Below, in pieces: positions 10,368 to 64,000 of a stretch of DNA of 64,000 nucleotides. The notes beneath the pieces are model-generated. The model was not told the origin of the DNA and searched no databases. It saw only the letters and a list, made by a program, of their open reading frames with translations. Source of the DNA: an uncultured Chloroflexia bacterium. Lineage in GTDB: Bacteria; Chloroflexota; Limnocylindria; Limnocylindrales; CSP1-4. Location: NCBI GenBank assembly GCA_963743815.1, contig CAVURB010000002.1, positions 9,008-73,007 on the forward strand, written 5' to 3'. Position 1 is the stretch's first letter. Each line of letters starts with the position of its first letter. The position numbers and the translations under genes were made by a program.

Positions 10368-12274
10368 CAGTCGTTCGTGTAGAAGTTGCCGCGCTTGAGC
10401 AGCTCGGGAAGGCGGTAGTCCTTCTCGATGTCGTAGTGCAGCTGGAAGAAGTACTTCACGATCTCGGTCGCGGCGTTGCCGACGGTCCGCGAGTCGTGCG
10501 CGAAGGCCATCACGACCAGCTCGGAGTCGGTCTTGTTGAACGACCCGTTGACCGGGTCTCTCGGCGTGAACCCGACGAACCAGGACGAGTACGGGAGCCG
10601 ACCCTTGGCGTCCGGTGTCCCGAACTCCGCCGTCCCGGACTTGCCGGCGATCTTGATCGGCAGGTCCACGAGGTTGTACGTGTGGCGCAGCGTCACGGTC
10701 TCGCGCGCGGCGTTGCGCATCACCCGCAGCACGCTGTTCTTCACGTCCAGCTCGTGGAGGACCTTGGGCTCGAACGGCCGGATCACCCTGCCGTCCGGGC
10801 CGACGACCTCGCGCACGATCTGCGGCTGGTACAGCGTCCCGCCGTTCGCCAGGGCCGCGTAGGCATTGATGAGCTGGAGGGGCGTCACGGCGTCATAGCC
10901 CTGGCCGATGCCGGCCTGGTACGTCTCGCCGGCGAACATCGGCGCGCCCAGGGCGTCCTGCTTCCACTCGTTCGTCGGGCACGATGCCGGACACCTCACC
11001 GGGCAGATCGACGCCGGTGGGCTCACCGAAGCCGTACTGGTTCGCCCAATAGCCCAGCCGGTCGCTGCCCGAGCATGCCCGCGACCTGGTAGAAGAAGGT
11101 GTCGCTCGAGTGGCCGAACCCGCAGTAGATGTCGCACGGGCCCCAGCCACGCCGGTTCCACTCGTAGAACTTGGTCGACCCGAGCGTCAGGAACCCCTTC
11201 GTCATGACCTTGGTCGACGGGCTGATCTCCTTGTCGGCGAGGCCACCGGTCCCGGTCACGAGCTTGTACGTGGATCCCGGCGCGTAGTGGGCCTGCACCG
11301 CGTGGTTGATGAGCGGCTTGTCCTTGTCCTCGAGCAGCTCGGTGAAGTCGGCCGCGCTGATCCCGCGGGAGAACAGGTTGTTGTCGTAGGTCGGCAGGCT
11401 GACCATCGCGAGGATCTCGCCGGTCTGCGGGTTCATCGCGATGACGACACCGCGCGTCATCCCGATCTTCTTCATCGCCCAGCGGAGCGCCTTCTCGGCG
11501 TCTTTCTGGGCCTGCGTGTCGATGGTGAGCGTGAGGGACGCCCCAGGCTCGGCGTCGCGAACGGTCTGGAGCACCTGGGTCCGCCGGCCGGTCGCGTCGC
11601 GCTCCACGCTCTCGGCGCCGTAGGTGCCGCGCAGCTCCGTCTCGTACGCGCGCTCGACCCCGACCTTCCCGATGCAGATCGTCCGGCTGGTAGCCGAGCT
11701 GCGCGCAGCTCGGGCAGCTGCTCGGCCGACACCGGGACCGGTGTAGCCGAGGAGCTGCGACATAGAGCGGCCCGTCCGTGTACTCGCGCCGAGCCTCGAC
11801 GACGACCTCGACCCCGGCAGCTCGAATCCGGCCTCGGAGATGAGATTCGCCGTCGCCTGATCGACGTCCTGCGCGACCCTGACGAGGTCGAACGCGGATC
11901 CGGGATTGCCATCGATCGTCGCGTTGATGTCGGACGCGTCCATCTTGAGGAGGGCGGCCAGACGCGTGACGACCGAGTCGCGCAGGGAGTTCGGGCAGGT
12001 CGGCTGGGCGGACCTTCACGGCGAAGGTCGGCACGTTGGAGACCAGCAGGCGTCCGCTCCGGTCGTAGATGAGGCCGCGCGGCGCGGGGATCGGCTCCTC
12101 GCACGGTCCGATTGGCCGTCGAGAGGGCCGCGTACTCCGTGCCGTTCGCGATCTGCAGGTAGAACAGGCGCGCCGTCAGCGCGCCCGACGCCGAGCACCA
12201 CCACCAGCCCGAACACGAGGAAGCGCGACAGTCCGGCGTGCCGGCTCCTGCCGACCGTCGAGGTAGGTGTTCAC
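10367..12274 (-). CDS. mrdA: Penicillin-binding protein 2 (class B); several frameshifts
   Basis: PRGLIYDRSG, GKVGVE..YE..LRG, YAPGSTYK (SxxK), HSSDTFFYQ, IAGKSGTAE (KSG). Confidence 0.93.
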
Positions 12275-12771
12275 CAGTCCACCCGTTCCTGGTCCATCCG
12301 TCGATCGTGCACGGCGATCACCAGCGGGCCCACGATCGCGGCGAGAACGGCGTCGTAGATGGCACCCGGCACCACGGTCGACAGCGGGTCGTCGACCGGG
12401 AGCGGTGCGCCCAGCGCGCCGAAGATGATGAACAGGATCATCGAGTACCCGATGCTGAGGACGAACACGGCCCCGATCGGGACGATCGGTCGAAGCCGTG
12501 CGAAGGATCTGGCGAGGACAGAGGCGCCGCCCACGCACAGGAGGAGGGCGAACGCCGAGGAGCCGAGCGGTCGTTGTGCAAGGACATCGAGTGCGAGACC
12601 TCCGACGAAGGCCCAGACCAGACCGGCCTCGAGACCGACCGCGATCGTGACCACGACGCCGAAGACGAGCACCAGATGTGGTTGCGCGTCTCCGATCTTG
12701 AGATAAGCACCGACGGTGAGTTCCAGCAGGGCCGTCACCACCGCACCGACCGCAGCGAGTAGCAGGGTCAT
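12271..12771 (-). CDS. mreD: Rod shape-determining protein MreD
   Basis: Hydrophobic 166-aa protein; PHLVLVFGV...GLVWAFVGGLALDVL; stop overlaps the mrdA GTG. Confidence 0.85.
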   Translation of the reverse strand: MTLLLAAVGAVVTALLELTVGAYLKIGDAQPHLVLVFGVVVTIAVGLEAGLVWAFVGGLALDVLAQRPLGSSAFALLLCVGGASVLARSFARLRPIVPIGAVFVLSIGYSMILFIIFGALGAPLPVDDPLSTVVPGAIYDAVLAAIVGPLVIAVHDRRMDQERVDW

Positions 12772-12937
12772 CGGTCGGGTCGAATCCTCGGCGAAGTGGC
12801 CAAAGGTCGCGCCCCTCCCTGCCTGGCACCTCAAGACGATGGATTCGGCGGCGACGTCTTCGGTGCAGTATCCCATGCGAGGCACGAACGGGCAACGGGC
12901 CGCGGTCGAGGTCCCGATCCGATGCAGCGCGCCGGGC

Positions 12938-12953
12938 TGTTTCACGTGAAACA
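12938..12953. promoter_or_regulatory. parS: parS centromere site
   Basis: Perfect palindrome TGTTTCACGTGAAACA, the canonical ParB-binding consensus, about 125 bp upstream of parA. Confidence 0.95.
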
Positions 12954-13037
12954 AGCGCCGGATACGTCGCAGCTACGTCACGCCTGCCATGCTGGCGGCA
13001 GCGCATCCGCAGAACGAGGTCAAACGCCCGGCGATGG

Positions 13038-13043
13038 TAGAAT
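13038..13043 (+). promoter_or_regulatory. Extended -10 element of the parAB promoter
   Basis: TG-G-TAGAAT upstream of parA. Confidence 0.55.
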
Positions 13044-13078
13044 TCGAGCCTGTGAGAGCCCTCCGAGCAGGCCACTGA

Positions 13079-13909
13079 GTGGGCCGAACGATCGCCTGCG
13101 CGAACCAGAAGGGCGGCGTCGGCAAGACCACGACGGTGGTGAACCTCGCGAGCTACCTTGCGCTCGACGGGGACCGCGTCCTCGTCGTCGACCTCGACCC
13201 CCAGGGGAACGCCACGAGCGGGCTCGGCGTGGATCGCGCCGCGCTGGACCGTTCCGTCTATGACGCCGTCGTCGACGGCCACGAACTGGAGACACTCATC
13301 GTCCAGAGCTCGGCGTCCGCCGTCGACATCGTCCCCGCCTCGATCGCGCTCGCCGGCGCCGAGGTCGAGCTCGCGGGGATCGATGCCCGCGAACGGCGGC
13401 TGCGTCGGATGCTCGAGCCCGTCGCACCGAAGTACGACGTCATCTTCATCGATTGCCCGCCATCGCTCGGCCTGCTGACCGTGAATGCACTGACCGCTGC
13501 CGATGCCGTGCTCGTCCCGCTCCAGTGTGAGTACTACGCGCTTGAAGGACTGACCCAGTTGCTCGCAACCATCGACCTCGTCCGGGATCATCTGAACCCG
13601 CGTCTCGCGCTCGACGGGCATCGTCCTGACCATGGCCGACGCCCGCACGAACCTGTCCGCCGACGTCGCCGCTGAGGTCCGCCGACACCTGGGCGACAAG
13701 GTCTACGAGACGGTCATCCCGCGAAGTGTCCGGCTCTCGGAGGCACCGAGCCATGGGCTGCCGATCAACCGGTACGCCGAAGGGTCGCGCGGCGCCGTCG
13801 CCTACCGCCTCCTCGCTCGCGAGTTCCGGGCGCGCCGCGATCGTGGACCGGTCCCCTCGGCCTTCGCCGCACAAGAGCGAACCGCCGACGCCGAAGCGAT
13901 GGTGCTCTC

Positions 13910-13913
<4 letters not shown>
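13079..13913 (+). CDS. parA: Chromosome partitioning ATPase ParA/Soj; frameshift near 13620
   Basis: ANQKGGVGKTTT, DLDPQGNATSGLG, IDCPPSLGLLT, PLQCEYYALEG, IPRSVRLSEAPSHG. Confidence 0.96.
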
Positions 13914-16742
<2,829 letters not shown>

Positions 16743-37404: not shown

Positions 37405-37548
37405 AGGTACCTCGTAACAGCCCTGCGGCCTGCGAGGTGAGCTGTCGGGCTCGGCGTGGGTCCGCCGTCGCGGTGGGTCCGCGATTCGCCCCGGAAGGTG
37501 GGTCCCCCGTCCTCGGATGAGGAGGTTCGGCCACGGACAACGATACCA

Positions 37549-37600: not shown

Positions 37601-38197
37601 TCAGCCCGGGGTGTCGAGCCCGTCCTGGAGGATCGCCTCGACCCGATCGGCGGAGACCGGAGCATCGAACGTCAGCTCCAGGATCCGGTCGAAGGCCATC
37701 GCATCGGTCGCTTCCGTGGGCTCCGGCTGCACGAGGACGAACCGAAGGCCGGTCGTGGTCTCGTCGATGAAGAGCGCGAGGTCGCTGTCGATCGGGAAGT
37801 CGACCCACGTCAGGCGAAGCGTTCGGTCATCGACGTTCTCGACGACGAGGGCGTACGGCTCCACCGACGCGCCGTCACCGGGCGTCCCGGAGACGGCATC
37901 GACGACGCTGCCGGTGTGGTCGACGATGTCGACCTCGACGTCGGCGCCGGTAGCATTCTCGAGGTCGACGGTCATCGGCATGGCGTCGCCGCCACCGTCC
38001 GACGGCGTGGCGATCGGCGTGGCGATCGGCGTGGCGGTCGGCGCGATGGGCGTCGGGGCCGGTTGGCCAGTCGGCGACGGGTCTGCCGCGACGGCCGAGC
38101 TGCAGGCAACCAGGACAAAGGCGGAGACGGCGAAGACAAGGCCCAGACCGGCGCTCGTGCGTCGCGTCCGGCGGGGTCGTGGCGAATGGGTGGTCAT
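37601..38197 (-). CDS. Putative lipoprotein with a Pro/Thr-rich linker
   Basis: Basic N-region, hydrophobic core, lipobox LVAC, PIAT repeats; GAAGGA SD. Confidence 0.78.
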   Translation of the reverse strand: MTTHSPRPRRTRRTSAGLGLVFAVSAFVLVACSSAVAADPSPTGQPAPTPIAPTATPIATPIATPSDGGGDAMPMTVDLENATGADVEVDIVDHTGSVVDAVSGTPGDGASVEPYALVVENVDDRTLRLTWVDFPIDSDLALFIDETTTGLRFVLVQPEPTEATDAMAFDRILELTFDAPVSADRVEAILQDGLDTPG

Positions 38198-38424: not shown

Positions 38425-38800
38425 GGGGATGCGTGGTTTCGACAGGGCTTGGCTGTCGGGGAGTGCGAGCCGGGGATGCTGCTCAGGCCCCGTCAACAAG
38501 GCAGCAAAACGAAGTACCTGGCAACCGCCAGTCGACTCTCGCCCTCGCTGCTTAGGCAGTAAGGTGAGCGTGGAAGCTACCTCCGCTTCGCGGGTAGTGG
38601 AAGCGTCATGCAGCGAAGCTGCGATCCGGATGAGCGTCGCGTAGTCCGGAGTCAAGCCCGATCTAGGGGCACGTGACTGGACCGCCCGACAGGGTGCCGA
38701 TGTTCGTTCGGGCGGTCGACGACAAACCATCGGACACGCTCGTAGTGGTCCCCGGCGAAGGGTTCTGGACGGGGAGTTCGACTCTCCCCCATCTCCACCA
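38425..38800 (+). ncRNA. ssrA: tmRNA; tag peptide (A)GNRQSTLALAA
   Basis: 5' GGGGATGCGTGGTTTCGAC, 3' GAGTTCGACTCTCCCCCATCTCCACCA; tag ORF at 38520-38555; TGgTAGCAT -10 at 38384-38392. Confidence 0.96.
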
Positions 38801-51964: not shown

Positions 51965-54232
51965 ATGGCCGCCAGACTCCAATTGAAGCTCGGTCTCGTC
52001 GCCGAGCACGCCCGCCTCGCCAATTCGCCGGACACGCTCGTCGTGGTCGAGCCGAGCGTGGGTTCGGTCGCCCGCTCGAAGGGCCACCTGTACCTGCTCG
52101 TCACGGCACGGACGAGCTCCCGCCACGCCCTCGAGGCCACGCGGCTCGCCGCCGAGACGATCCGCAACGAGTACTACTACGACGAGTCCGCGGGCATCCG
52201 GGTCTGCCTCCAGAAGGCGATCGCGACCGCGAACAAGCGACTCGCCCACCAGGCGGATCGGCTCGGCCTCAAGTCGCCCGATGGCAACGGCCCGATCGGC
52301 GTCGGCGTCGCCGTCGTTCGCGGCAACGAGATGTACGTCGCGACGGTCGGACCTGCCGAGGCCTACCTCATCCGCCAGGCTCGCCTGTCGACGCTCCCGG
52401 ACCCGCACCGCGAACGGGGCCTGCCATCCACCGGGCTCGAGCCGGATGTCTGGCGCGGCGAGATCTCGGTCGGCGACTCCCTCGTCCTCGTCTCCCCGAA
52501 CATGATGGCGCGCCTGGGACCCGACGAGCTCAAGGACGCGATGCTGACGCTCCACCCGCAGTCGGCGATGGAACATCTCCACGCCCGGTTCGTGGCGGCC
52601 GATGGTGCCGGGTCCGATGGTGCCATCGCCTTCGAGGCGACCGAGGTGGCGACGACGACCCGTGCCCGCACCCTCGTCCCCGTGCGGCCGGCGGAGCCGC
52701 TGGCGGGCGCCCCGGATCGATCGCCGATCCCGCTGGCGGACAACGTGCAGGCGGCATCGGCCGCCGTGACGAGCGCCGCCGGCAATGCGCGCTCGGCCGC
52801 GGGCGGTGCGCTCGAGCGGGTCGTCGGCCGGGTGCAGGAGTTCATGCCCCGGCGCAAGCCCGCCTACCGGCGGGTGACACCCCTCGCATCGCGCCGCGAG
52901 ACGCAGCGCCGGGCCGCGGTGGCCGCCCTCGCCCTGATCACGGTCGTGGGCGGTCTCGGTCTCGCGGTCTACGCGTTCGGTGGCACGGGCCAGCAGGAGG
53001 CCATCAGCTCGGTGAATGCCGGGCAGGCGGCCCTGACGGCCGCCCAGGAGCGGATCGACGACGTGTCCGGACCGGGCATCGACCTGATCGAGGACGACCC
53101 CGAGCAGGCGATGACGCTGCTCACGGAGGCGTACGAGGAGCTCGACAAGGCCGAGGCGGCCAAGGTGAACGCCAGGGTGGTGGACCCGCTCCGCGCCGAG
53201 GTGGTGGCTGGGCTGGATCGGCTGTACGGGGTGGTCCCGGTCGCGACCACGGACTTGTTCACGTTCACCCCCGAGGAGGGGGCAGAGGCGTTCGACCTGA
53301 CCACGATGGTCCGCGGTCCGGATGACGCCCCCTACGTCATCGATGCCGCGACCAAGACCGTCTATCGCGTGGACCTCAAGCGGATGAAGGCGACCACCGT
53401 CGTGCGCGAGGGGAAGAAGGCCGGCGGCACGACGGTCGCCGAGCCCAGGTTCCTGGCCGTCGGCGGGCGCGATCTGCTGATCCTCGACAGCAAGAACGTA
53501 CTCTGGCGGTGGCGCGCATCCGACGACGCCGGCAAGGGGACGCTCACCAAGGTCACGGTCTACGGCTCCACCCAATGGGGCGACGACATCACGGCCATCG
53601 GGACGTTCCTGCGGGACAAGGAGCGCAACCTCTACAACCTGTACGTGATCGACCCCTCCGAACAGCAGATCCGTGCCTACCCGCCCGCCAGCGACGGCGG
53701 CGGGTTCCCGGCCAAGCCCACCGGTTGGCTGGCGACGGCGCGGGCGGTCGACGAGATGACGGCGATGTACATCGACGGCGACGTCTTCATCACCGAGGCC
53801 GGCATCCTGGAGCGATTCACGCGCGGCAAGAGTGACGGATGGGAGGCTGGCGCACCCGAGGACCAGCTGTTGCGGCCCGCATCGGACCTCATCCTGGTGG
53901 CCGGCACGGGCGACCAGCGCGAGGGCGTGGTGTACGCCTTCGACAGCCGCAACGACCGCGTCCTGGCCTACGACAAGGCCAGCGGGGAGTACGTCGCCCA
54001 GTACCGGCTCGCCGGCGAGCGCCCGGACTGGGAGGACCTGCGTGCCCTCTATGTGATCCCTGGTGTGGAGGAGGCTCCCGCCACCCTGGTCTGGCTCGGA
54101 GAGGACCGCATCGGCGAGGCGGTCCTCGAAGCCGTCTCGGACGACGCACCCCGCGCGACCCCCACGGCGACCCCCGAGGAGAGCGACGGGTCGGGCGATG
54201 AGCCGAGCCCCGATACGACGCCCAAGCCGTAG
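51965..54232 (+). CDS. Membrane protein: degenerate PP2C-like domain + TM + extracytoplasmic NHL/beta-propeller
   Basis: PP2C-fold strands (GHLYLLV, LQKAIATAN, VAVVRGNEMYVATVGPAEAYLIR, VGDSLVLVS); one TM; YNLYVIDP..QI..Y and MYIDGDVFI repeats; TATAAT at 51868. Confidence 0.7.
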   Translation: MAARLQLKLGLVAEHARLANSPDTLVVVEPSVGSVARSKGHLYLLVTARTSSRHALEATRLAAETIRNEYYYDESAGIRVCLQKAIATANKRLAHQADRLGLKSPDGNGPIGVGVAVVRGNEMYVATVGPAEAYLIRQARLSTLPDPHRERGLPSTGLEPDVWRGEISVGDSLVLVSPNMMARLGPDELKDAMLTLHPQSAMEHLHARFVAADGAGSDGAIAFEATEVATTTRARTLVPVRPAEPLAGAPDRSPIPLADNVQAASAAVTSAAGNARSAAGGALERVVGRVQEFMPRRKPAYRRVTPLASRRETQRRAAVAALALITVVGGLGLAVYAFGGTGQQEAISSVNAGQAALTAAQERIDDVSGPGIDLIEDDPEQAMTLLTEAYEELDKAEAAKVNARVVDPLRAEVVAGLDRLYGVVPVATTDLFTFTPEEGAEAFDLTTMVRGPDDAPYVIDAATKTVYRVDLKRMKATTVVREGKKAGGTTVAEPRFLAVGGRDLLILDSKNVLWRWRASDDAGKGTLTKVTVYGSTQWGDDITAIGTFLRDKERNLYNLYVIDPSEQQIRAYPPASDGGGFPAKPTGWLATARAVDEMTAMYIDGDVFITEAGILERFTRGKSDGWEAGAPEDQLLRPASDLILVAGTGDQREGVVYAFDSRNDRVLAYDKASGEYVAQYRLAGERPDWEDLRALYVIPGVEEAPATLVWLGEDRIGEAVLEAVSDDAPRATPTATPEESDGSGDEPSPDTTPKP

Positions 54233-55528: not shown

Positions 55529-56335
55529 TCAGACCGGGTCTCGCAGGATCGGTTCGCCGCGGCGGAGGGCGCGGTCGCGGTTCACCCACATGTGCAGGCG
55601 CAGCCGCCAGAAGTCGCGGACCGCGCGGAGGATCACCTGCGGCCGGGCGCCGGTCGGTGACCCGGCGGTCCGGGGGTAGTGGGGCACGCCCACCTCGACG
55701 ACCGATCGCCCGGCGACCCGCAGCTTGATCAGGAGCTCGGCGGAGAAGAACGCGCCACCGGACTCGACGCGCAGGCCCTCGAGGGCGTCGCGACGGAGCA
55801 GCTTGCAGGCACAGTCCACGTCCGTCACGGTCAACCCGAAGAACAGGCGATTGGCCAGCCGGTACGCCTTCGCATAGATCGTCCGGATGACCGGGTCGGC
55901 CCGCTTGATCCGAAATCCGGCGACGACATCAGGGGCGTCAGGTGCTGCGAGCCGGGCCGTCAGCCGGGCGAGGTCCTCGATCCGGAACTGCCGGTCGCCG
56001 TCGGTGAAGGCGACGAGCTCATATCGGGCGGCAGCAAAGCCCGACCGCAGGGCCGCTCCGTATCCCTGGTTCACCTCGTGGTGGACGACGCGCACGATCC
56101 CCGGGTGGGCCACGGCGAGTTCGTCGGCGATGGCCTTCGTGCGGTCGCGCGACCCGTCGTCGACCGCGATGATCTCGAAGGTCTCCGCGATCGTCGGCAG
56201 GACGTCCAGCGCCTCCTCCACGAGCCCGGCGAGGTTCGCTTCCTCGTTGTGGGCGGGGAAGAAGTACGAGAGCCGGGCGAGGCGGACAGCCGGTGGCAGC
56301 GGCCGCGGTCTCCGGTGGCGGTGACGACCGGTCAC
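55529..56335 (-). CDS. GT2 glycosyltransferase, polyprenol-phosphate sugar synthase (DPM1/Ppm1-like)
   Basis: FFPAHNEEAN, VDDGSRD, FTDGDRQF, DVDCACKL. Confidence 0.9.
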   Translation of the reverse strand: MTGRHRHRRPRPLPPAVRLARLSYFFPAHNEEANLAGLVEEALDVLPTIAETFEIIAVDDGSRDRTKAIADELAVAHPGIVRVVHHEVNQGYGAALRSGFAAARYELVAFTDGDRQFRIEDLARLTARLAAPDAPDVVAGFRIKRADPVIRTIYAKAYRLANRLFFGLTVTDVDCACKLLRRDALEGLRVESGGAFFSAELLIKLRVAGRSVVEVGVPHYPRTAGSPTGARPQVILRAVRDFWRLRLHMWVNRDRALRRGEPILRDPV

Positions 56336-57871
56336 GCCGGCGTCCTCGCGCGGGCCGACGACCCGGGTCAGGAACCGCGCGTCCAGGCCGTCGATCGGAT
56401 CGAGCACGTAGCGTCGCTCGAGCTCCGCGATCTCGGCAAGGTCGGCGCGGATGACGTAGACGGGGCGCGTGGGGAGGTTGTCGTCGATCACGTCGTAGAT
56501 GTCTCCGAGGTCCTGGTCGAGGCGGGTCCGGTCGTCGATGATGGCGATGTCGGGCCGCAGGCCCTCGACGTGCTGTGCGTACCATAGCGGGGTCGAGAAC
56601 GACCACCAGCTGACGACGACCGCGTCGGGTTCGAGCGTCGCGAGCGTCCGGTCCAGCCATCGCCGGGCGGCCGTGTCGTCGCTCCGATCCACCTGCTCGG
56701 CGCGTCCGCCAAGAGCCAAGCCGGTCGGGACGAGCAACAGCACCGCGAGGACGGTCGCGACGATCGCCCTGGGCCGCAGCGCCGGTCCGTCGCTTCCGTC
56801 GAGCGGGTCGGGGTCGGTGTCAGCGGTGACCGACGTCGCGACGGCCCCGACGAGGATCGCCAGCCACGTCCACGCGATGAGTGCCGGAACGAGGTAGTAC
56901 CGCCCGATGTCGGCGTTCACATACGATGCGGCGAAGAGGCAGGTGATCCCGAGCGAGACGCCACTGAGGATGGCGTAGCGAGGCCTGACGAAGGCCGTCG
57001 CGATGAACCCGACCGGGATCAGCGCCGCGAGCGGCCCGAAGCCGGCCACCGTCCGGTCCACGAGTTCGCCGATCTTGCCCCCCAGGTCGCTGAACGGGGA
57101 GACGAGGCTGCCCCGGAACTGCTCCGCGAGGACGATGTACCAGAACCCGTCCCAGGTCTCCGGTCGGCCATACACGAGCGGCGCACGGAACGGGCCGGCG
57201 CGCAGCGGCAGCTGCAGGAAGACCAGGGCGGCCGTCCCGATCACGGCCAGGGCGCAGACGAGGATGAAGCGGGGCCGGCGAAGGATGCCCGGCTCCACCG
57301 CGAGGACGTAGATCCCGACGGCTGGCGCGAGGAGTAGCGTGAGCGAGTGGTTGCCCATGGCGAGCCCGTAGACCATCGCCGCGGTGACCAGCAGCCGATC
57401 CCGTCGCCGACCGGGCGGCCCGGCCTCCCAGGCCACGAGGACGCGGAACAGGATCGCGACGAGCAGCAGGTGCAGGGAATGCGCCTCGGCGTGGGTGCCG
57501 ATCGACCACACGATGTCCGTGAAGGCCAGACCCAGGCCGGCGAGGACGCCGAGGACCAGCGACCGGGTGAGGGCTCGGGTGAGGTCCACCGTCACCGCCG
57601 CCGCGGCCGCGACGCACAGCGCCGAGTAGAGGTTCATGCGCAGCGCCGGTTCGCCGAACGGTGACAGCAGGAGATTGGCGATCCATGCCGAGATGACGTA
57701 CGTGGGGAATCCGGTCGGATGGGCAGTGCCCAGGAGCGGGCCGACGGTCTGGAGCTCACCGGTATCCCAGAAGTCGACATCGGGGAGCAGCGTCAGGCGG
57801 ATCGCGATGAACGCCGCGATCCCGACCGCGAGCGGGACCGCGATCCTGCCGACCGTGCGGGCGTTCACCAT
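56332..57871 (-). CDS. DUF2723/TMEM260-like GT-C glycosyltransferase; appears in frame with the GT2, probably through an indel
   Basis: WDTGELQTVGPLLGTAHPTGFPTY signature, multi-TM, C-terminal soluble domain. Confidence 0.85.
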
Positions 57872-59346
57872 CCCAGCAACCGCCCCCAGGCGACGCCCCA
57901 CGCGTTGATCACCACCGAAAGCGCGACGAGCCCGACCGTGAGCGGCATCGCCCACCAGCGGCCGCGATCGACGAGCCGTTGCGCACCGAGGGCGACGAGG
58001 ATCAGCGCGAACGGCACGACGTCGTTGCTGAACCGGTAGCCGAACTGGACCCAGCCCTGGCTGAAGTGCATGAGGTTGACGATGACGACCAGGATGATCG
58101 CGAGCGCGGCCCCGGTCACAAGGCGGCTGCGTCCGTAGCGCCGCAGGGCAGGCAGGAGGAGCAGGTACGCCGGGCTCGTCAGCAGCACGCTCATCCCGAT
58201 GTCGCGCGGGACCACAAGCGGGCAGTCGCGGTCGAACAGGCCGCGCGTGGCACCGGGCTCCTGGCAGACCGGCGTCGCGTTGACGCCCAGGCTGTCGGGC
58301 AAGGTCGTCGGGAAGACGTCCGGCGTGGCGAGGAACATGAGCGCGGCGTTCCTGGGCAGGTAGCGCGGATCCTCGACCGCCCAGTCCGGTTCGTAGCCGA
58401 GCGCGCGATAGGCTGCCGTCTCCTGTCGATACAGGTAGTCGTAGGCGGGATGCAGGGCGGTGCCGGTGGTCGCCACGTTGTAGGCGAGCAGGAGCCCCAC
58501 CGGGATGATGGCGCCCAGGCCGGCCGACCAGCTGCGCCGCCACCACGTGCCGCCCGCCCCGACCAGCATGAAGAACGGCGCGGCGAAGACGACTGTCAGG
58601 CGGGCGGTGCACGCCAGGCCGAACAGCAGGCCGATCAGGAACTGGCGTCGGTCGACCGCAAGGCGGTCGCGCCAGCGCTCAGCTGGAGCGTTGCCGACCG
58701 TCCCGGGGGCGCGCTGCTCGTCCCCGGGCTCGTCGTCCTGGGCGGCTGGGTCGGCGCGGAGCGCGAGCCCCACCGCGACCATGATCAGCCCGACGGCCAC
58801 GATGTGCGCCTGGTACCAGGTCGTGGCCAGCTGGGCGGTGTACCAGAAGACCGTCCCGAATGCGAAGAAGATCGTGGCCGCCAACCGGATCGGGGCGCGG
58901 ATGGCGAGCGGCGCCAGCATCCACCAGCACAGCGCGATGTCGATGGCGGCCAGGATCGTGAAGAGGGTCTGGTCGTCGGTCGCGAGACCCCAGGTCGCGA
59001 CGAACGGCACGAGCAGGAGGGCGGGCAGCGGCGGGAACGGGAGGAGCGCCCGCGCCACCCCGTCGGTCGACACCACCGGGAGCACGTCCTGGAAGTAGAA
59101 GTTGCCCAGACCGTCCGGTGACTCCCACACCGGGTAGCGGATCGCCGCCTGGCCCTCGAGGAATGCCGACGCCTGCCAGACGAAATGGTCATAGAACCGG
59201 TCGGCCTGGGTGGCCAGATAGATCACGAGGGCCGCGAGCGCGAGCAGACCGCCGACCGCTATCGCCAGCCAGCGTTCGGCGCGCGCCTCTTCCCATCGGC
59301 CCGCTCCGGAGTCCGCCGGGCGACCCTGTGCTACGCTCCGATCCAC
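57865..59346 (-). CDS. Polytopic membrane protein, probable GT-C glycosyltransferase
   Basis: YDHFVWQASAF, FPPLPALL, LACTAR, FGYRFSND; about 11 TM segments; within the glycosylation cluster. Confidence 0.6.
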   Translation of the reverse strand: MDRSVAQGRPADSGAGRWEEARAERWLAIAVGGLLALAALVIYLATQADRFYDHFVWQASAFLEGQAAIRYPVWESPDGLGNFYFQDVLPVVSTDGVARALLPFPPLPALLLVPFVATWGLATDDQTLFTILAAIDIALCWWMLAPLAIRAPIRLAATIFFAFGTVFWYTAQLATTWYQAHIVAVGLIMVAVGLALRADPAAQDDEPGDEQRAPGTVGNAPAERWRDRLAVDRRQFLIGLLFGLACTARLTVVFAAPFFMLVGAGGTWWRRSWSAGLGAIIPVGLLLAYNVATTGTALHPAYDYLYRQETAAYRALGYEPDWAVEDPRYLPRNAALMFLATPDVFPTTLPDSLGVNATPVCQEPGATRGLFDRDCPLVVPRDIGMSVLLTSPAYLLLLPALRRYGRSRLVTGAALAIILVVIVNLMHFSQGWVQFGYRFSNDVVPFALILVALGAQRLVDRGRWWAMPLTVGLVALSVVINAWGVAWGRLLGW

Positions 59347-59377
59347 CTTCCACGCTCGTGCAGGAGCCGTTTTCCCG

Positions 59378-62300
59378 GTGACTGGCCCCGCATCCGGCGG
59401 GCTTGAGCGAGGCACGGGAGCGCCAACGCGGTCGACCGGGACACAGGGAGCCGTCAGCGCGATCCTGATCGTCCTCGCGCTCGGGCTCGCCCTCCGCGTC
59501 ATCATCGCATACCTGCTCCCGGGCTCCGGTTTCGACACGGACCTGTCGAGCTTCCGCGCGTGGGCGGCCAACCTGTTCGACGAGGGGCTCTACGGCTTCT
59601 ACGATCGGGACTTCTTCCACGACTACACGCCCGGCTATCTGTACGTCCTGTGGCTCGTCGGGGCCGTCGGCAGCGTGTTCGGCGGCGTCGGTGACCTCAT
59701 CAAGATCCCGCCGATCCTGGCGGACCTCGGCATCGCCTGGCTCGCCTGGTCGATGGTTCGTGAACTCGGCGGCCGCGATCGACTGGCTCTGCTGGCGGCG
59801 GCCGTGGTGGTGGTCAACCCGGTCTTCTGGTTCGACAGCGTGGTCTGGGGCCAGGTCGACTCGTTCGGCGTCCTGTTCCTGCTGCTGGCCCTGCGCGAGC
59901 TGTGGCGCGACCACCCCGAGCGAGCCGCGATCCTCACCGTGGTCGCTGCGCTGATCAAGCCGCAGCTGGGGATCCTGATCCCGCTCGTAGCCGTGGTCAC
60001 CATCCGTCGCGCCCTGTGGCCGATCGAGGCTCCCGCCGCGGGCGCCGGTGACGGTCGTGGCCTGCGCCACCGGTTGCGCGCCTGGGAGGCACGCACCGGG
60101 TCACCACTCCGGATCCTGACGACCGGCGCCGCCGGTTACCTGACCGCCGTCATCCTCTGCCTGCCCTTCGGGTTGAGCGTGCTCGTGCCGCAAGCCGAAC
60201 CACCGTTCTTCACCTCCGGGCTCATCGAGCAGATCGTGCTGGCCGGTGGCGGCTATCCGTATCTGACGGTCAACGCCTACAACGCCTGGGCACTCGTTCC
60301 CGGCGACCTCGGCAACAGCCTGGCCAACAGCGGGCTGTGGATGTGCGATTCGCTGATGGTGGAGGCCTCGCGCTGCACGTCGGGGACAGCGACCTTCGGG
60401 CCGATCCCGGCGGTCGCCGTCGGGGCGGGACTCCTGGTGGCGACGATCGTGGGCGTCCTCGTGGTGGCGGCGCGTCGCCCGGACAAGCTGACGCTGCTCG
60501 TCGCCATGTCCGTCCTTGCCATCGCGTTCTTCGCTGCGCCGACCCGCGTCCACGAACGGTATGGGTTCCCGTTCTTCGCCCTGGCCGCGATCCTCTTCGC
60601 GATCTCGTTCCGCTGGCGCATCGCCTACGTGGTCATGAGCGTGGCGACGTTCCTCAACATGTACGTGGTCCTGACCACGCTCTATCCGCCCCGGGATCCG
60701 ACGGTCAATCCCGTCGTGGACTGGCTGGGCATCGGGGAAGCCGTCCGGTCGCCGGCCGGGGTCGTGGCGGTCGCGATCATGCACACCGCGGTCTTCATCT
60801 GGGCGCTGTGGCAGCTGCGCGCCAGCGGCCGCGAACGGCTCGCGGCGGACCTGGTCGATGCCGGCCCGTTGCCGGAGTCCGTTGCCGTCGATCGGGGGCC
60901 CAGCGGGTCGCTGGACCGTCCGATCGTGGACCCGCTCGCACCCCAGGCCGAATGGATAGCCGCGAGCGGCGGTTCGGCCGACGCCGCCCCGACGGTCGCC
61001 GCCGCGGCGGTCGTCTATCCGACCTGGCAGGGACCGCGGTCCTTCAGCGAGGCCGGGTTCACCGGCTGGTTCCGCGACCGGCTCTCCCAGCGACCTGCCC
61101 GCGCCGACCGCAGCGCGGCGATCGCCCGGGAGGGTGGCGGACGCCTGGACGGCCTGGACGCCTGGTTCCTCGTCGTGCTCGTGCTGGCGACGCTCGGTAT
61201 GCGCACGTTCCGCCTGGCCGAGCCCTATCAGATGCACTTCGATGAGGTCTACCACGCACGGACCGCGGCCGAGTTCCTGCAGGGCTGGCGCTACGGCCTG
61301 GACCACGACATCTACGAGTGGACGCACCCCCACCTGGCCAAGTACGCGATGGCCGGTGGCATCGCGCTATGGGGCGAGGATGACGTCCGCGCCACCAGCG
61401 CACTCGGGACGCCGGTCCGCGCGGCAGCCATCGAGCATCGTCGTGAGGACGCCGTGAACGGCGAACGCGCCGGTGAGCGTGTCCACGTGGCGACGGGGAC
61501 GGAGATCCGGACGTACGACCTGCGCTCGCGCGAGCTCATCGATGCCATTCCGGCGGCGGGGGCGAGTGCGGTCGCGGTCGATCCGACGACCGACCTGCTC
61601 ATCGTCGGATCCGACGATGGCGGGGTTTCGACGATCGACCTCACCTCGATCGGCCTCGAGGAGGGGTTGGCGCCGCTCGACGTCGGGCGGGTCAACCACG
61701 CGGTCATGCACCTGCTCGTGACCGACGATGGCACGACGATCATCGCCGCGTCGGACGCGCGCCTGACGGCCCTCGATGCCGCCGAGGGGACGGTACTCGG
61801 GACCGCTGAGCTGCCCGGGATCGCCGATCTCGGGCCGGCCGGGACCGGCGACGCCCTGGTGGCCGTCCCGGCCGCCATCGATGACACCACGGCCATCGCC
61901 TCGACGCTGGCGGAGCTCCTCGACGGCGACGCCGGCGAGTATCAGGCGCTGCTCGACGGTGCGACGGACCCGGACGGCCAGGTCGTGCTGGGCAGCCCGG
62001 GCAGCGGCGAGGAGCGGACCGCCGTTGACGAGGCGATCACGGATGGCCGGCTTGCCGGCGTGGAGGTGGTGGAACTGCCGCGCGTGGCCGTCGCGACCGA
62101 GGACGGCGTCGCCTTCATCGATCCGGCCACGGCCGGGGTCTCGAGCGAGATCGCGATGATCGGCGGGGCGCACGGACTGGCGTTGGTCACAGGCATCGAC
62201 GACCCGAAGCTCTACGTGAGCAGCGGCCCGTCCGACGACCCCGGCTACGACGTGATCTCCGTGGGCGGGGAGAAGGCCGATGACGGACCGGTCAGCGATG

Positions 62301-64000
62301 GACGGCACCCGCTTCCTGCGCCCGGCACGCGCGTCGCGTACGACGAGGCGACCCAGCAGGTCCACATCCTTGGCCTCACGCCGGACGCGACCGGGTCCGA
62401 CACCGACGACTGGACGGTCTACGTCGTCGAACCGCATGGCAACGCCGTGTTTGCCGACGCGGCCCTCCCCGACGGCATGGTCCCGGCCGCGTGGGTCATG
62501 GATGTCGAGCCGGCGTACGTGAGCGACGATCGGCAGGAGCTGCTCGTCTTCGGCGACGACGGCGCGACGGCATCGATCGCCCTGGGGTCGCACGCATTCG
62601 CCTGGCGCCTGCCGGGCGTGATCGCCGGTGCGCTGATGGCCGCGTGCCTGTACCTGCTGACGCGGATCCTGTTCCGACGCCGGCTCGTCGCGGGGCTCGT
62701 CGCGGCCTTCGTCGTGCTCGACGGGATGCTGTTCGTGCAATCGCGGATCGGGATGAACGACGTGTACGTCGGCTTGTTCATCATGGCCGCATACACGGTA
62801 TTCGCCGCGGTCTGGACGGGTTGGTGGCGAGGCCGGGTTGCCTTCTGGATATCCATGCCCGTCATCGGCCTCCTCATGGGCCTGGCCCTCGCCTCGAAGT
62901 GGGTGGCCGCCTACGCGATCGGGGCCCTCGTGCTGCTCCTGCTCGTCCGCAGTGCCCTGGGGCGGGTGATGGCCATCCTGGGGCTCATCGCGATCACGAG
63001 CGTCCTCGGGTACATCGCGCTCGCCGTGCCCGAGGGCCAGGGCATCGGGAACGTCACGTTCCTGGCGATCATGGTCGCGCTCACGCTGCTCGCCGTGGTC
63101 GTGGCGGTCTATCACCCCGTGGCCTGGACCGACGAGGAGCAGTGGCTCGCCCTGCTGGCGCCGGCGGCGGCCGGGGTCGCCGTCTTCTTCGGCGCGCTGG
63201 GGCTGGGTCTTCTCGAGACGACGATCACGGTGGGCTCGCTGGCCGTGACGCCGTTCCTGGTGGCCTTGCTGCTTGCGTCGGGCTCCGTCGTGGTCGCGAT
63301 CGCCTTCTGGGTGGGTGGGCGGCTCGGGTATGGCCCGCTCGCGACGCCACCCGGCCCCGACGATCCGCGGAGCATCCTCGAGGCGCCCGCGACGCCGCCA
63401 TCGGGCTGGCTCCGCCCCGGCTGGTCGTTCGGCCTGCCCCTGGTCTGGGCGACGATCTCCCTCGTGGCGATCCCGCTGGTCGTGTACGTGATCTCGTACA
63501 TCCCGTGGGCGATGATCGACGGCCACCAGCTGTGGACCGGCGTCCCCGCCGGACACGATGGGCAGACCCTGCTCGAGCTGACGGCGCAGATGTACGGCTA
63601 CCACAACGGGCTCACCGCCCCGCACCCGGCTTCGTCGCCCTGGTGGGCCTGGCCGTTCGACCTCAAGCCGGTCTGGTTCTACCAGGACTCGTTCGCCGGC
63701 GGGACCACCGCCGCGATCTACGACGCGGGCAACCTCGTCATCTGGTGGCTCGGCGTCCCGGCGATGGTGTTCGTCTCGATCATGGCCTTCCGCCGGCGCA
63801 GCCTCGCCCTGGCGCTGATCGCCATCGGGTTCGCCGCGCAGTGGATCCCCTGGGCGCGGATCGATCGGGCGGCGTTCCAGTACCACTACTACACGGCGCT
63901 GCCGTTCGTGATCATGGCGCTCGCCTACTTCGTGGCGGAACTGTGGAACGGCGCGACGCGGCGGACGTGGATGTGGGCGCGGATCGTCGCGGGCGTCGCG
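59378..64000 (+). CDS. Giant double GT-C protein: GT87/ALG6-like domain + PMT/GT39 protein O-mannosyltransferase with an inserted beta-propeller; runs off the window end
   Basis: Frame read in phase at sampled points from GTG 59378 (CAGGAG SD) to the window end; DTDLSSFRAW, DYTPGY, WGQVDS, KPQ, HERY; then FDEVYH, HPHLAKY, SRIGMND, SKW, HPASSPWWAWP. Confidence 0.85.
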   Translation, partial: MTGPASGGLERGTGAPTRSTGTQGAVSAILIVLALGLALRVIIAYLLPGSGFDTDLSSFRAWAANLFDEGLYGFYDRDFFHDYTPGYLYVLWLVGAVGSVFGGVGDLIKIPPILADLGIAWLAWSMVRELGGRDRLALLAAAVVVVNPVFWFDSVVWGQVDSFGVLFLLLALRELWRDHPERAAILTVVAALIKPQLGILIPLVAVVTIRRALWPIEAPAAGAGDGRGLRHRLRAWEARTGSPLRILTTGAAGYLTAVILCLPFGLSVLVPQAEPPFFTSGLIEQIVLAGGGYPYLTVNAYNAWALVPGDLGNSLANSGLWMCDSLMVEASRCTSGTATFGPIPAVAVGAGLLVATIVGVLVVAARRPDKLTLLVAMSVLAIAFFAAPTRVHERYGFPFFALAAILFAISFRWRIAYVVMSVATFLNMYVVLTTLYPPRDPTVNPVVDWLGIGEAVRSPAGVVAVAIMHTAVFIWALWQLRASGRERLAADLVDAGPLPESVAVDRGPSGSLDRPIVDPLAPQAEWIAASGGSADAAPTVAAAAVVYPTWQGPRSFSEAGFTGWFRDRLSQRPARADRSAAIAREGGGRLDGLDAWFLVVLVLATLGMRTFRLAEPYQMHFDEVYHARTAAEFLQGWRYGLDHDIYEWTHPHLAKYAMAGGIALWGEDDVRATSALGTPVRAAAIEHRREDAVNGERAGERVHVATGTEIRTYDLRSRELIDAIPAAGASAVAVDPTTDLLIVGSDDGGVSTIDLTSIGLEEGLAPLDVGRVNHAVMHLLVTDDGTTIIAASDARLTALDAAEGTVLGTAELPGIADLGPAGTGDALVAVPAAIDDTTAIASTLAELLDGDAGEYQALLDGATDPDGQVVLGSPGSGEERTAVDEAITDGRLAGVEVVELPRVAVATEDGVAFIDPATAGVSSEIAMIGGAHGLALVTGIDDPKLYVSSGPSDDPGYDVISVGGEKADDGPVSDGRHPLPAPGTRVAYDEATQQVHILGLTPDATGSDTDDWTVYVVEPHGNAVFADAALPDGMVPAAWVMDVEPAYVSDDRQELLVFGDDGATASIALGSHAFAWRLPGVIAGALMAACLYLLTRILFRRRLVAGLVAAFVVLDGMLFVQSRIGMNDVYVGLFIMAAYTVFAAVWTGWWRGRVAFWISMPVIGLLMGLALASKWVAAYAIGALVLLLLVRSALGRVMAILGLIAITSVLGYIALAVPEGQGIGNVTFLAIMVALTLLAVVVAVYHPVAWTDEEQWLALLAPAAAGVAVFFGALGLGLLETTITVGSLAVTPFLVALLLASGSVVVAIAFWVGGRLGYGPLATPPGPDDPRSILEAPATPPSGWLRPGWSFGLPLVWATISLVAIPLVVYVISYIPWAMIDGHQLWTGVPAGHDGQTLLELTAQMYGYHNGLTAPHPASSPWWAWPFDLKPVWFYQDSFAGGTTAAIYDAGNLVIWWLGVPAMVFVSIMAFRRRSLALALIAIGFAAQWIPWARIDRAAFQYHYYTALPFVIMALAYFVAELWNGATRRTWMWARIVAGVA

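Follow-up and report, generated by a model that had tools for sequence, protein, structure and literature searches.

A conserved Limnocylindria locus pairs a polyprenyl-phosphate sugar synthase-type gene with a candidate single-chain protein O-mannosyltransferase

Gene content and layout of the locus

The DNA analysed here is a window of 64,000 nucleotides from an uncultured Chloroflexia bacterium of the class Limnocylindria, and its end, from position 55529 onward, holds one donor-type enzyme and four GT-C glycosyltransferase modules. The donor-type enzyme is a GT2 protein of the polyprenyl-phosphate sugar synthase type that lacks transmembrane (TM) helices. The GT-C modules comprise a TMEM260-like protein, an unassigned protein that we call gtc2, and two modules, one GT87-like and one PMT/GT39, that reside within a single protein of 1795 residues (the giant protein). 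All five catalytic modules were located in the window, as follows.

55529..56335, minus strand: GT2, Ppm1/DPM1-like, about 268 residues, no TM helix (PF00535, 98 bits)
56336..57871, minus strand: TMEM260-like/DUF2723 GT-C, about 512 residues, ATG start at 57871 (PF11028, 88 bits against a cut-off of 24.2)
57865..59346, minus strand: gtc2, GT-C glycosyltransferase, 493 residues (AF2 model and Foldseek)
59347..59377, no strand: intergenic gap of 31 bp between the divergent starts of gtc2 and the giant gene
59378..60877, plus strand: giant protein, N-terminal GT87-like GT-C, residues 1-500 (PF09594)
61100..61384, plus strand: giant protein, PMT TM1 and first extracytoplasmic loop, with the HFDEVYH (DE) motif and HPHLAKY helix
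61385..62581, plus strand: giant protein, β-propeller in PMT loop 1, about 400 residues, predicted extracytoplasmic (AF2/Foldseek)
62582..64000 and on to 64765, plus strand: giant protein, PMT/GT39 transmembrane core (PF02366, PF16192)

A sequence-only reading of the window had proposed the same gene set, and every module in it is present, including the giant double GT-C/PMT protein. However, the GT2 and TMEM260-like genes form one open reading frame (ORF) in this assembly rather than two genes, and the giant gene, which opens with a GTG codon at 59378, runs 765 nucleotides past the end of the window. The divergent start codons of gtc2 (59346) and the giant gene (59378), described in that reading as 32 bp apart, do lie that close, and the N-termini of both proteins are kept in relatives (52 orthologs share that of gtc2, MDRSVAQG). 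A search of 59150-59600 gave no sigma-70 consensus promoter. The giant gene is a single ORF of approximately 1720-1980 codons in 49 relatives, has more than 1133 homologs, and aligns in a single frame over residues 1-1802 with its relative P0007 at 70% identity. Upstream, dnaN and DciA place the locus in a syntenic region near the origin.

The gtc2, TMEM260-like and GT2 proteins

Neither gtc2 itself nor a profile of 52 gtc2 sequences matched any Pfam family or PDB sequence. Its assignment comes from an AF2 model (pLDDT 87.5, pTM 0.89) whose best Foldseek matches are the GT-C enzymes AglB, Pmt4, ArnT, ALG3/9, Emb and AftD (probability 0.9-1.0, TM-score 0.4-0.48). The gtc2 family spans 2340 representative clusters, and a few orthologs weakly resemble YfhO and DUF6057. 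A cluster on contig C6 contains three gtc2 paralogs together with one paralog of the N-terminal module of the giant protein.

The stop codon of gtc2 overlaps the ATG of the TMEM260-like gene by 7 nucleotides, an arrangement repeated in a related locus (L083). The TMEM260-like protein is predicted from its TM count and positive-inside pattern to contain about 11 TM helices followed by a C-terminal domain of about 120 residues. Residues 7-448 align with human TMEM260 (9rql; E 2.5e-21), an IPT-domain O-mannosyltransferase, so that the membrane domains correspond end to end. The two proteins share the loop-1 motifs DxGEL (DTGEL here, DSGEL in 9rql) and AHPxGxP (AHPTGFP and AHPPGYP, respectively), as well as the first segment after the membrane domain. 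The metazoan protein is 707 residues long, whereas the bacterial accessory gene encodes about 512; the latter ends about 60 residues past the aligned region, and no TPR family match was found in it. Its nearest homologs are stand-alone proteins of 500-550 residues, the closest having 511. We are aware of no acceptor for any bacterial DUF2723 protein.

In this assembly the TMEM260-like ORF reads without a stop into GT2 and ends at 55529, and the ancestral GTG start of GT2 (56335) is in frame with the upstream gene. This fusion is probably an assembly indel artefact, because the two genes are separate in 64 of 76 relatives and the genome shows at least 10 shifts of reading frame across the adjacent PI-mannoside (PIM) genes, which are 70-95% identical. 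GT2 is most likely a separate, translationally coupled gene; relatives encode it as a protein of 254-258 residues, and the stop and start codons of the two genes overlap as GTGA in one related locus (L003) and as ATGA in two others (L001 and L009). Because the C-terminal domain of the TMEM260-like protein aligns just after the TMEM260 membrane domain and follows about 11 TM helices, it is expected to be extracellular, and a fused GT2 would therefore face away from nucleotide sugars.

Pfam, PDB and NCBIfam searches all identify polyprenyl-phosphate (Pol-P) sugar synthases as the closest relatives of GT2. Its best PDB matches are ArnC (9bhc, 1.8e-12), DPMS (5mlz, 8.9e-9) and GtrB (5ekp), and its top NCBIfam matches are ArnC, PpgS, PgfS and Dol-P hexose transferase. 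The equivalog scores reach at most 55 bits against cut-offs of 226-529 and assign no single sugar. The best match, ArnC, is not a mannose enzyme, which speaks against reading GT2 as a mannose-loading protein. The enzyme might thus make polyprenyl-P-glucose, -GalNAc, -arabinose or a similar donor, with the GT-C proteins decorating a wall polysaccharide or S-layer glycan, a proposal modelled on the three-component systems Gtr, CsbB/YfhO, GacI/GacL and PpgS/Rv3779. The matches of GT2 to ArnC, PpgS, PgfS and GtrB (all under family cut-offs) and the weak likeness of some gtc2 orthologs to YfhO and DUF6057 are in keeping with this proposal, and the C6 paralogs suggest a wider GT-C toolkit for envelope polymers. 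The locus indeed shares the logic of the GtrA/GtrB/GtrC, CsbB-GtcA-YfhO and PpgS-Rv3632-Rv3779 systems, in which a cytoplasmic GT2 supplies donor to GT-C users outside, but here a single synthase is accompanied by four GT-C modules, and no match to the GtrA flippase family (PF04138) was found in the genome that the window comes from (72% complete). GtrB and ArnC carry C-terminal TM helices, whereas GT2, like Ppm1-D2 and DPM1, is TM-less. Moreover, three of the four GT-C modules fall in families in which mannose is the sugar of the known members (the GT39, GT87 and TMEM260 enzymes characterised to date, as far as we know, all take Pol-P-mannose as donor), and a homolog of PimA, which uses GDP-mannose, is encoded nearby. 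We consider this combination of a different sugar and a wall-polymer target very improbable.

Modular structure of the giant protein

The giant protein is built in the order GT87-like module, PMT TM1 and first extracytoplasmic loop, β-propeller and PMT core, all within one ORF, and this order is kept class-wide. The N-terminal module of the window sequence, a weak GT87/PMT_2-type match, exceeds the PF09594 cut-off of 25 bits marginally (26.0-26.3 bits). The ortholog from family f69 reaches 37.6 bits along almost the entire profile, and that from family f2 falls below the cut-off at 20.9 bits. GT87 is matched by 32 of 44 orthologous modules at E<0.01, the others matching Alg6_Alg8 or PIG-U, and a profile of the 44 orthologs retrieved nothing relevant from the PDB at E values up to 10. 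The DLxxF motif that follows TM1 contains an aspartate (Asp55) with at least 90% conservation that also occurs in a stand-alone paralog, and for this reason the module may be a true transferase.

The PMT portion opens with TM1 and a loop containing the HFDEVYH motif, which is invariant in 49 orthologs; the AF2 model places helices at residues 37-55, 66-84 and 98-110 of this region. Arg-rich segments, read from the sequence, border TM1 and TM2 on the cytoplasmic side. Loop 1 then accommodates the propeller, whose AF2 model (pLDDT 84.5, pTM 0.82) contains about 31 strands between model residues 115 and 513, arranged in 7-8 blades with a helical sub-insert. Foldseek matches it to WD40-type propellers (target TM-score 0.65-0.74, E ~1e-8), and the corresponding WD40 sequence matches are weak. 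The core that follows scores above cut-off for PMT (PF02366, 34.3 bits against 22.7) and PMT_4TMC (PF16192, 62.8 against 32.4), as do the f69 and f2 orthologs, and it matches the Pmt4 structures 9i5k and 9e61. Extra C-terminal TM helices lie beyond the end of the window. The NCBIfam equivalog for bacterial Pmt (NF058602) is matched at 35 bits against a cut-off of 800, over the C-terminal part only. To our knowledge, family GT39 consists solely of protein O-mannosyltransferases. The Pfam and PDB sequence matches thus uphold the earlier assignments of the PMT and TMEM260-like proteins.

A complex with similar parts has been described in mycobacteria, where Pmt-3xFLAG of M. smegmatis pulls down the homologs of Rv0051, Rv3212 and Rv1209 (bioRxiv 10.64898/2026.07.15.738315). 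Rv0051 is a GT87-like protein said to lack catalytic residues, and Rv3212 is a periplasmic propeller with eight blades that was modelled as lying over the active site of Pmt; GT39-GT87 fusions also exist in Paenibacillus (bioRxiv 10.64898/2026.07.15.738315). The mycobacterial and corynebacterial complex (Pmt Rv1002c) and the giant protein therefore have in common a DE-motif GT39 core, a GT87-like GT-C module and a large β-propeller, a likeness of domain composition, and as the former is fed by Ppm1, so the Limnocylindria locus has its own Pol-P-sugar synthase. The systems differ in that the three parts are joined here in one chain of a Chloroflexota host, the propeller is lodged inside PMT loop 1 rather than forming a separate protein, and the N-terminal module retains the aspartate of its first extracytoplasmic loop, in contrast to the reported loss of catalytic residues in Rv0051. 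The GT87-like half might serve the PMT as a partner subunit and not act as an extender in its own right.

A two-gene core with accessory transferases

The locus block was found in all 80 related loci that were fetched and also across 71 genomes of the class, and its conservation exceeds chance by far. The synthase and four GT-C modules thus make up a conserved extracytoplasmic glycosylation locus, as had been proposed, and lack of conservation, named at the outset as grounds for giving up the proposal, is not what the genomes display: the PMT part of the giant protein is present in 71/71 Limnocylindria genomes, and a single-copy GT2 ortholog in 69/71. In coordinate tables of the class-wide set, GT2 lies on the same contig as the giant gene and within 7 kb of it in about 60 genomes. 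The divergent pair is retained in families f69 and f2 despite unrelated neighbours, namely ornithine decarboxylase and a PASTA kinase in f69 and purH in f2. The TMEM260-like gene is missing in f2 and in about half of f3, and gtc2 is missing in 17 of the 80 loci. The class-wide core is therefore GT2 and the giant protein; the TMEM260-like protein and gtc2 are dispensable accessories, and the four GT-C modules are not an obligate unit.

This pattern bears on the model originally put forward, in which the PMT and TMEM260-like proteins independently initiate O-mannosylation on different protein classes and the GT87-like module and gtc2 elongate the resulting glycans, all in one pathway. The alignment of the TMEM260-like protein with the human enzyme covers its whole membrane domain and includes DxGEL, the PMT module keeps its DE motif, and translational coupling joins gtc2 to the TMEM260-like gene, all of which such a model would accommodate, as it would the S/T/P-rich linkers and TIG/IPT-domain ORF described below. 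Nevertheless, many genomes keep GT2 and the giant protein without one or both of the other transferases, so concerted action of two initiators and two extenders does not fit the phyletic pattern. The bacterial TMEM260-like protein is without the metazoan TPR domain, its family has no known bacterial acceptor, and an extender role for GT87 is at odds with the report that its mycobacterial counterpart is a non-catalytic partner. On balance, the model appears improbable.

The adjacent PIM operon and possible lipid acceptors

Just outside the window lies a mycobacteria-type PI/PIM operon encoding PIP synthase, Ino1, two PatA-like acyltransferases, a PHP protein and a PimA-like GT4 enzyme. The PimA homolog is full length (4n9w/2gej, E 3e-62 over residues 1-363), the PatA homolog matches 5f2t (E 4e-14), and PIP synthase (NF045883, 92 bits) and Ino1 (TIGR03450, 537 bits) both score under their equivalog cut-offs. 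With this operon abutting it, and with no GtrA-type flippase detected in the partial genome, the locus is not self-contained as first described. Its position beside the PimA/PatA/PIP-synthase/Ino1 operon instead leaves room for lipid acceptors, which figure among the grounds for refutation listed in the sequence-only reading, as does the fact that all characterised GT87, ALG and PIG relatives known to us act on lipid-linked glycans.

The GT87-like half of the giant protein, possibly with gtc2 and the TMEM260-like protein, might accordingly extend PI-mannosides to higher PIMs or a lipomannan-like polymer, with GT2 supplying polyprenyl-P-mannose as for PimE, MptB and MptA in mycobacteria and proteins not being the main acceptors. 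The operon adjoins the giant gene in family f1 and is no more than about 9 kb away in f3, the PimA and PatA homologs match at E 3e-62 and 4e-14, the N-terminal module matches GT87, Alg6_Alg8 and PIG-U (families that glycosylate lipid-linked glycans) and conserves Asp55, and genomes of 1.1-1.4 Mb still hold PimA, GT2 and the giant protein. The actinobacterial PIM/LM/LAM pathway (PgsA1-PatA-PimA, Ino1, Ppm1, PimE/MptA/MptB) likewise combines the same operon parts with GT87-like GT-C enzymes and a TM-less Pol-P-sugar synthase. In Limnocylindria, however, the GT87-like module has a marginal Pfam score and no solved-structure match and is fused to a PMT; this other half of the protein is a GT39 enzyme with an invariant DE motif, and the composition of GT87, propeller and GT39 is that of the reported Pmt complex. 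The GT2-giant pair is also not adjacent to the PIM operon in f69 and f2. Of 301 Chloroflexota genomes, 221 have PimA-like genes, a range far beyond that of the giant protein, and PIM-type lipids therefore do not need it. The synteny near the origin may be a matter of simple inheritance. We know of no LM-type product from any Chloroflexota. A pathway devoted to lipoglycans is thus unlikely, less so than the alternatives considered above.

A model for envelope mannosylation and its candidate acceptors

The reading that we favour, with modest confidence, is that the locus mannosylates the envelope from polyprenyl-P-mannose and centres on a protein O-mannosyltransferase holoenzyme in a single chain, both the sugar and the acceptors being presumed. 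In Limnocylindria it would supply the extracytoplasmic half of an envelope glycosylation pathway that depends on a lipid carrier. At the cytoplasmic face, GT2 would charge polyprenyl phosphate with a sugar, most likely mannose taken from GDP-mannose; a flippase would turn the lipid-sugar to the outer face, and the GT-C transferases would use it there. The giant protein most likely corresponds to the mycobacterial Pmt holo-complex (Pmt, Rv0051 and Rv3212) condensed into one chain, and its propeller may cap the active site and pick acceptors. Protein O-mannosylation, as suggested in the sequence-only reading, is a reasonable function for a protein with the same three parts, and would be directed to Ser/Thr residues of exported proteins. 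The TMEM260-like protein and gtc2 could be lineage-variable accessory users of the same donor, and the PI-mannoside lipids may be a further acceptor pool. As it joins the three kinds of mycobacterial mannosylation parts in one chain, the giant protein, encoded beside its donor gene in an uncultured soil bacterium of the Chloroflexota, would offer a natural fused model of the mycobacterial protein-mannosylation machine.

Two Pro/Thr-rich proteins singled out earlier as plausible acceptors exist as described. One is the product of the 51965-54232 ORF, which has a PT-rich tail, and the other is a candidate acceptor with the following coordinates.

37601..38197, minus strand: lipoprotein with lipobox LVAC, then a linker rich in Pro and Thr (from the translation)

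More generally, S/T/P-rich linkers of this kind, which we infer could be O-mannosylation acceptors, occur in about 26 of the 165 lipobox ORFs of the genome, this one included, and one ORF encodes a TIG/IPT domain.

Organization of the locus

The gene arrangement described in the sequence-only reading is borne out, as all five catalytic modules are found at the locus and the 'giant', in which a GT87-like N-terminal module precedes a PMT/GT39 core, aligns end to end and in a single frame with an 1802-aa relative. The surrounding window has a G+C content of 70% and occupies C2:9008-73007 in a 3.9 Mb assembly of 19 contigs.

Genes at the locus (window coordinates)
57871 (ATG) to 55529, minus strand: TMEM260-like (DUF2723) GT-C protein and GT2, one open frame with no stop up to the GT2 end
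59346 (GTG) to 57867-57865 (TGA), minus strand: gtc2, a 493-aa membrane protein
59378 (GTG) to 64765 (window-scale, past the window end), plus strand: the giant, 1795 aa in the genome

The gtc2 TGA overlaps the ATG of the TMEM260-like gene (57871) by 7 nt, and a gap of 31 bp (59347-59377) separates the divergent gtc2 and giant start codons, both of which are conserved. No sigma-70-like promoter was found in this gap and its flanks by a search that says little at 70% GC. Because the gap is only 31 bp and no such promoter is detectable, the promoters must each lie inside the opposite gene, or the mRNAs must be leaderless.

The single open frame joining the TMEM260-like protein to GT2 could be taken for a true synthase-transferase fusion, and is probably an artefact. 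Of 76 complete related loci, 64 have a TMEM260-like protein that ends at about residue 510 and a GT2 that begins in a different frame; the remaining loci have an in-frame stop (6 of 76) or read through (only 6 of 76). At L003, a related locus of 90% identity, the TMEM260-like stop and GT2 start overlap as GTGA, and the window carries one extra base just upstream that puts the TGA out of frame. The nearest TMEM260-like homologs among 5.8 billion proteins are stand-alone and 500-550 aa long (the best is 511 aa, 92% identity), and separate TMEM260-like (514 aa) and GT2 (258 aa) genes are called in the relative L083. Frame changes also mark the phosphatidylinositol mannoside (PIM) operon past the window end, where the PimA-like gene contains a frameshift with a relative 93% identical on its upstream side and 84% downstream, and the PHP, acyltransferase and PIP-synthase genes show at least 10 frame changes with identities of 70-95% inside the pieces. 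Across window-scale positions 64693-70692 (9700-15699 of the related locus L082), the PimA-like, PHP_C, both PatA-like and PIP-synthase genes are each split into 2-4 reading frames relative to L083, with identities of 61-95% inside the pieces. These patterns suggest that single-base indels are numerous in the assembly, and frameshifts or fusions within it are to be distrusted. Moreover, the C-terminal domain of the TMEM260-like protein is predicted to be extracytoplasmic from its TM count, positive-inside pattern and TMEM260 homology, so a fused GT2 would face away from nucleotide sugars.

Identities of GT2, the TMEM260-like protein and gtc2

GT2 matches PF00535 (98 bits), and its best solved-structure matches are all polyprenyl-phosphate sugar synthases (ArnC, 1.8e-12; Pyrococcus DPMS, 8.9e-9; and GtrB). 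At about 255-268 aa it lacks a TM helix, as judged from its sequence, a trait shared with Ppm1-D2 and DPM1. Its scores fall below every NCBIfam equivalog cut-off, so its sugar stays unassigned. The TMEM260-like module matches PF11028 (88 bits), and residues 7-448 align with human TMEM260 (9rql, E 2.5e-21). The DSGEL and AHPPGYP motifs of the human protein appear as DTGEL and AHPTGFP, respectively, and the first post-membrane domain is also conserved, whereas the TPR domain is absent.

Searches of Pfam, NCBIfam and PDB sequences, including with a 52-sequence profile, gave no match to gtc2. Its AF2 model is confident (pLDDT 87.5, pTM 0.89) and matches only GT-C enzymes (AglB, Pmt4, ArnT, ALG3/9, Emb and AftD), with probabilities of 0.9-1.0 but TM-scores of only 0.4-0.48, which makes gtc2 a GT-C protein that lacks close characterised relatives. 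The gtc2 family comprises 2340 clusters at 50% identity. Elsewhere in the genome, gtc2 has three paralogs at 27-29% identity, and the GT87-like module of the giant has a single stand-alone paralog, which lies on contig C6.

Paralogs of gtc2 and of the GT87-like module
C6, 43896-45068, plus strand
C6, 56847-58013, minus strand
C6, 74180-75304, minus strand
C3, 330393-331457, minus strand

Three of the four fall within about 31 kb of contig C6, which may hold a second envelope-glycan locus.

Modules of the giant

The N-terminal module of the giant matches GT87 marginally in the window genome (26 bits against a cut-off of 25), as do 32 of 44 orthologs; some orthologs match Alg6_Alg8 or PIG-U instead, and a distant ortholog reaches 37.6 bits on GT87. 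A PDB profile search gave no assignment of this module to solved structures, and a search for remote homologs that stand alone brought up nothing but fragments of the giant itself. An aspartate, D55, in a DLxxF motif after TM1 is conserved in at least 90% of sequences and is common to the stand-alone C6 paralog. The PMT core matches PF02366 and PF16192, each above cut-off, and the sequence HFDEVYH in TM1 and loop 1 is invariant. Loop 1 also holds an insert of about 400 aa, which folds into about 31 strands in the AF2 model (pLDDT 84.5, pTM 0.82) and matches WD40-type propellers in Foldseek (TMt 0.65-0.74). The propeller is predicted to lie outside the membrane, because Arg-rich segments precede TM1 and follow TM2 in the sequence and the helix order of the model.

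GT2 and the giant form the conserved core

The sequence-only reading hinged on the cluster being conserved, and the block is retained in all 80 related loci. Within f1, the Limnocylindria family of the window, synteny alone says little because unrelated neighbour genes are equally retained. Deeper sampling across the class tells more: the giant's PMT part is present in 71 of 71 genomes and a GT2 ortholog in 69 of 71, and the two lie on one contig and at most 7 kb apart in about 60 genomes, as read from coordinate tables. The divergent arrangement of GT2 and a GT87+PMT giant persists in the families f69 (giant of 1315 aa) and f2 (1440 aa), where the neighbours differ, being ornithine decarboxylase and PASTA kinase genes in f69 and purH in f2. 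The TMEM260-like gene is absent in f2 and about half of f3, and gtc2 is absent in 17 of 80 f1 loci and in the f3 loci examined. The functional unit is GT2 plus the giant, given their class-wide presence, whereas the other two GT-C proteins are often missing and are accessory. The initial interpretation, a lipid-linked glycosylation system of four GT-C domains and one donor synthase, is supported in part. Elsewhere in Chloroflexota, TMEM260-like genes occur in 118 of 301 genomes, in up to 11 copies, and generally do not adjoin a GT2 gene. The interval between GT2 and the giant gene, occupied in f1 by the TMEM260-like gene and gtc2, holds in f69 a 396-aa ORF that lacks a Pfam match (L118 4489-5679, plus strand) and may encode another unassigned membrane protein or be a spurious high-GC ORF.

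Comparison with the mycobacterial Pmt complex

In M. smegmatis pull-downs, homologs of Rv0051, Rv3212 and Rv1209 come down with Pmt-3xFLAG, and partner knockouts phenocopy pmt to varying degrees; Rv0051 is a GT87-like protein that is said to be without catalytic residues and is modelled as a Pmt2-like partner, while Rv3212, a periplasmic propeller with eight blades, sits over the active site of Pmt in the model (bioRxiv 10.64898/2026.07.15.738315). GT39-GT87 fusions are also present in Paenibacillus (bioRxiv 10.64898/2026.07.15.738315). The mycobacterial complex is built from separate GT39, GT87-like and propeller proteins, whereas in the giant exactly these three kinds of part share a single chain. 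For this reason we propose that the giant would act as a single-chain PMT holoenzyme supplied by the adjacent GT2. The module folds and families, the conserved motifs and the GT2-giant linkage are observed. The donor made by GT2 would most likely be polyprenyl-phosphate-mannose, the propeller would gate the giant, and proteins would be its acceptors; gtc2 and the TMEM260-like protein may also have a role. We judge the locus to be one of Pol-P-mannose-dependent envelope mannosylation in which the PMT complex is fused, and the phylum is one from which no such system is known to have been described.

About 26 of 165 lipobox ORFs carry S/T/P-rich linkers, among them the Pro/Thr-rich lipoprotein that the sequence-only reading had proposed as an acceptor; the linker is thus present, and the lipoprotein is a candidate acceptor. 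Since metazoan TMEM260 acts on IPT domains, the ORF with the sole TIG/IPT-domain match in the genome (contig C7, 84205-84402, minus strand, 38 bits) is a candidate substrate of the TMEM260-like enzyme.

To our knowledge, protein O-mannosylation is known among bacteria only from Actinomycetota. The need of Pmt for a GT87-like partner and a periplasmic propeller is a recent proposal made in a preprint (bioRxiv 10.64898/2026.07.15.738315), and a class-wide natural fusion of the three parts in an unrelated phylum would lend the complex independent support of the 'Rosetta-stone' type. As one polypeptide, the giant could also be used for structural work. The locus further offers the first tractable bacterial setting for a TMEM260/DUF2723 homolog, the human ortholog of which underlies a congenital heart and kidney syndrome, as well as for the uncharacterised GT-C family of gtc2, with its more than 2000 clusters.

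A neighbouring PIM operon and the lipid alternative

Just past the window end, convergent with the giant gene, lies a PIM operon that is intact in L083, from which the neighbourhood gene calls were taken. Its order there is HTH regulator, CDP-alcohol phosphatidyltransferase, inositol-1-phosphate synthase, two Lip_A_acyltrans genes, PHP_C and GT4. The GT4 has a full-length match in M. smegmatis PimA (E 3e-62, compared with 4e-22 for PimB'), the acyltransferase has PDB matches to PatA only (4e-14), and NCBIfam gives PIP synthase, INO1 and PIM acyltransferase as the best matches in the operon. On the basis of these matches, the locus adjoins a predicted early PIM pathway of the mycobacterial type. 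Flanked by the PatA-like genes on one side and the PimA-like gene on the other, the PHP_C gene (L083 16557-17378, window-scale about 65971-66746) is a candidate PIP phosphatase gene; in mycobacteria, EphE has been proposed instead for this step (bioRxiv 10.64898/2026.07.15.738315).

PimA-like genes were found in 221 of 301 Chloroflexota genomes sampled, as single copies with 40-47% identity and about 300 bits, including in genomes of 1.2-1.9 Mb, and the capacity to make PI-mannosides may be shared across the phylum. Among the papers searched, none dealt with PI/PIM or with lipoglycans of Chloroflexota or Limnocylindria, and a search of the window genome, which is 72% complete, for a GtrA flippase found none. 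Together with the locus itself, the widespread PimA-type operon suggests that inositol-mannoside and Pol-P-mannose envelope chemistry extends beyond actinobacteria.

Rather than serving as a partner of the PMT core, the N-terminal module of the giant may be a true transferase that acts on PIM-type lipids or extends O-mannose, as D55 is conserved, lipid-linked glycans are the substrates of GT87, ALG and PIG enzymes, and the PIM operon is close to the locus in two families. Strict adjacency as proof of a shared pathway is weakened, as 8.7 kb of unrelated genes intervene in f3 and the operon does not adjoin the GT2-giant pair in f69 and f2. A wider reading, which we regard as improbable, envisages an actinobacteria-like mannosylated envelope in Limnocylindria, made by a set of enzymes not described before, in which a bifunctional giant would initiate through its propeller-gated GT39 part and extend, or mannosylate PI-lipids, through a GT87 part that is still catalytic, and the TMEM260 homolog would also initiate O-mannosylation, on folded Ig-like (TIG/IPT) domains. 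If true, both metazoan-type O-mannosylation systems would go back to deep-branching Terrabacteria.

The single-chain PMT holoenzyme supplied by GT2 remains our preferred reading. Upstream of the locus, gene calls from L083 give dnaN, a DciA-like gene, a 755-aa receptor-like protein, a rhomboid and a BFN/DUF151 gene. Near the gene of the Pro/Thr-rich lipoprotein, the window also contains two RNA features.

RNA features near the lipoprotein gene (window coordinates)
37412-37542, minus strand: c-di-AMP riboswitch (65 bits), just downstream of the lipoprotein gene
38425-38800, plus strand: tmRNA gene (109 bits)
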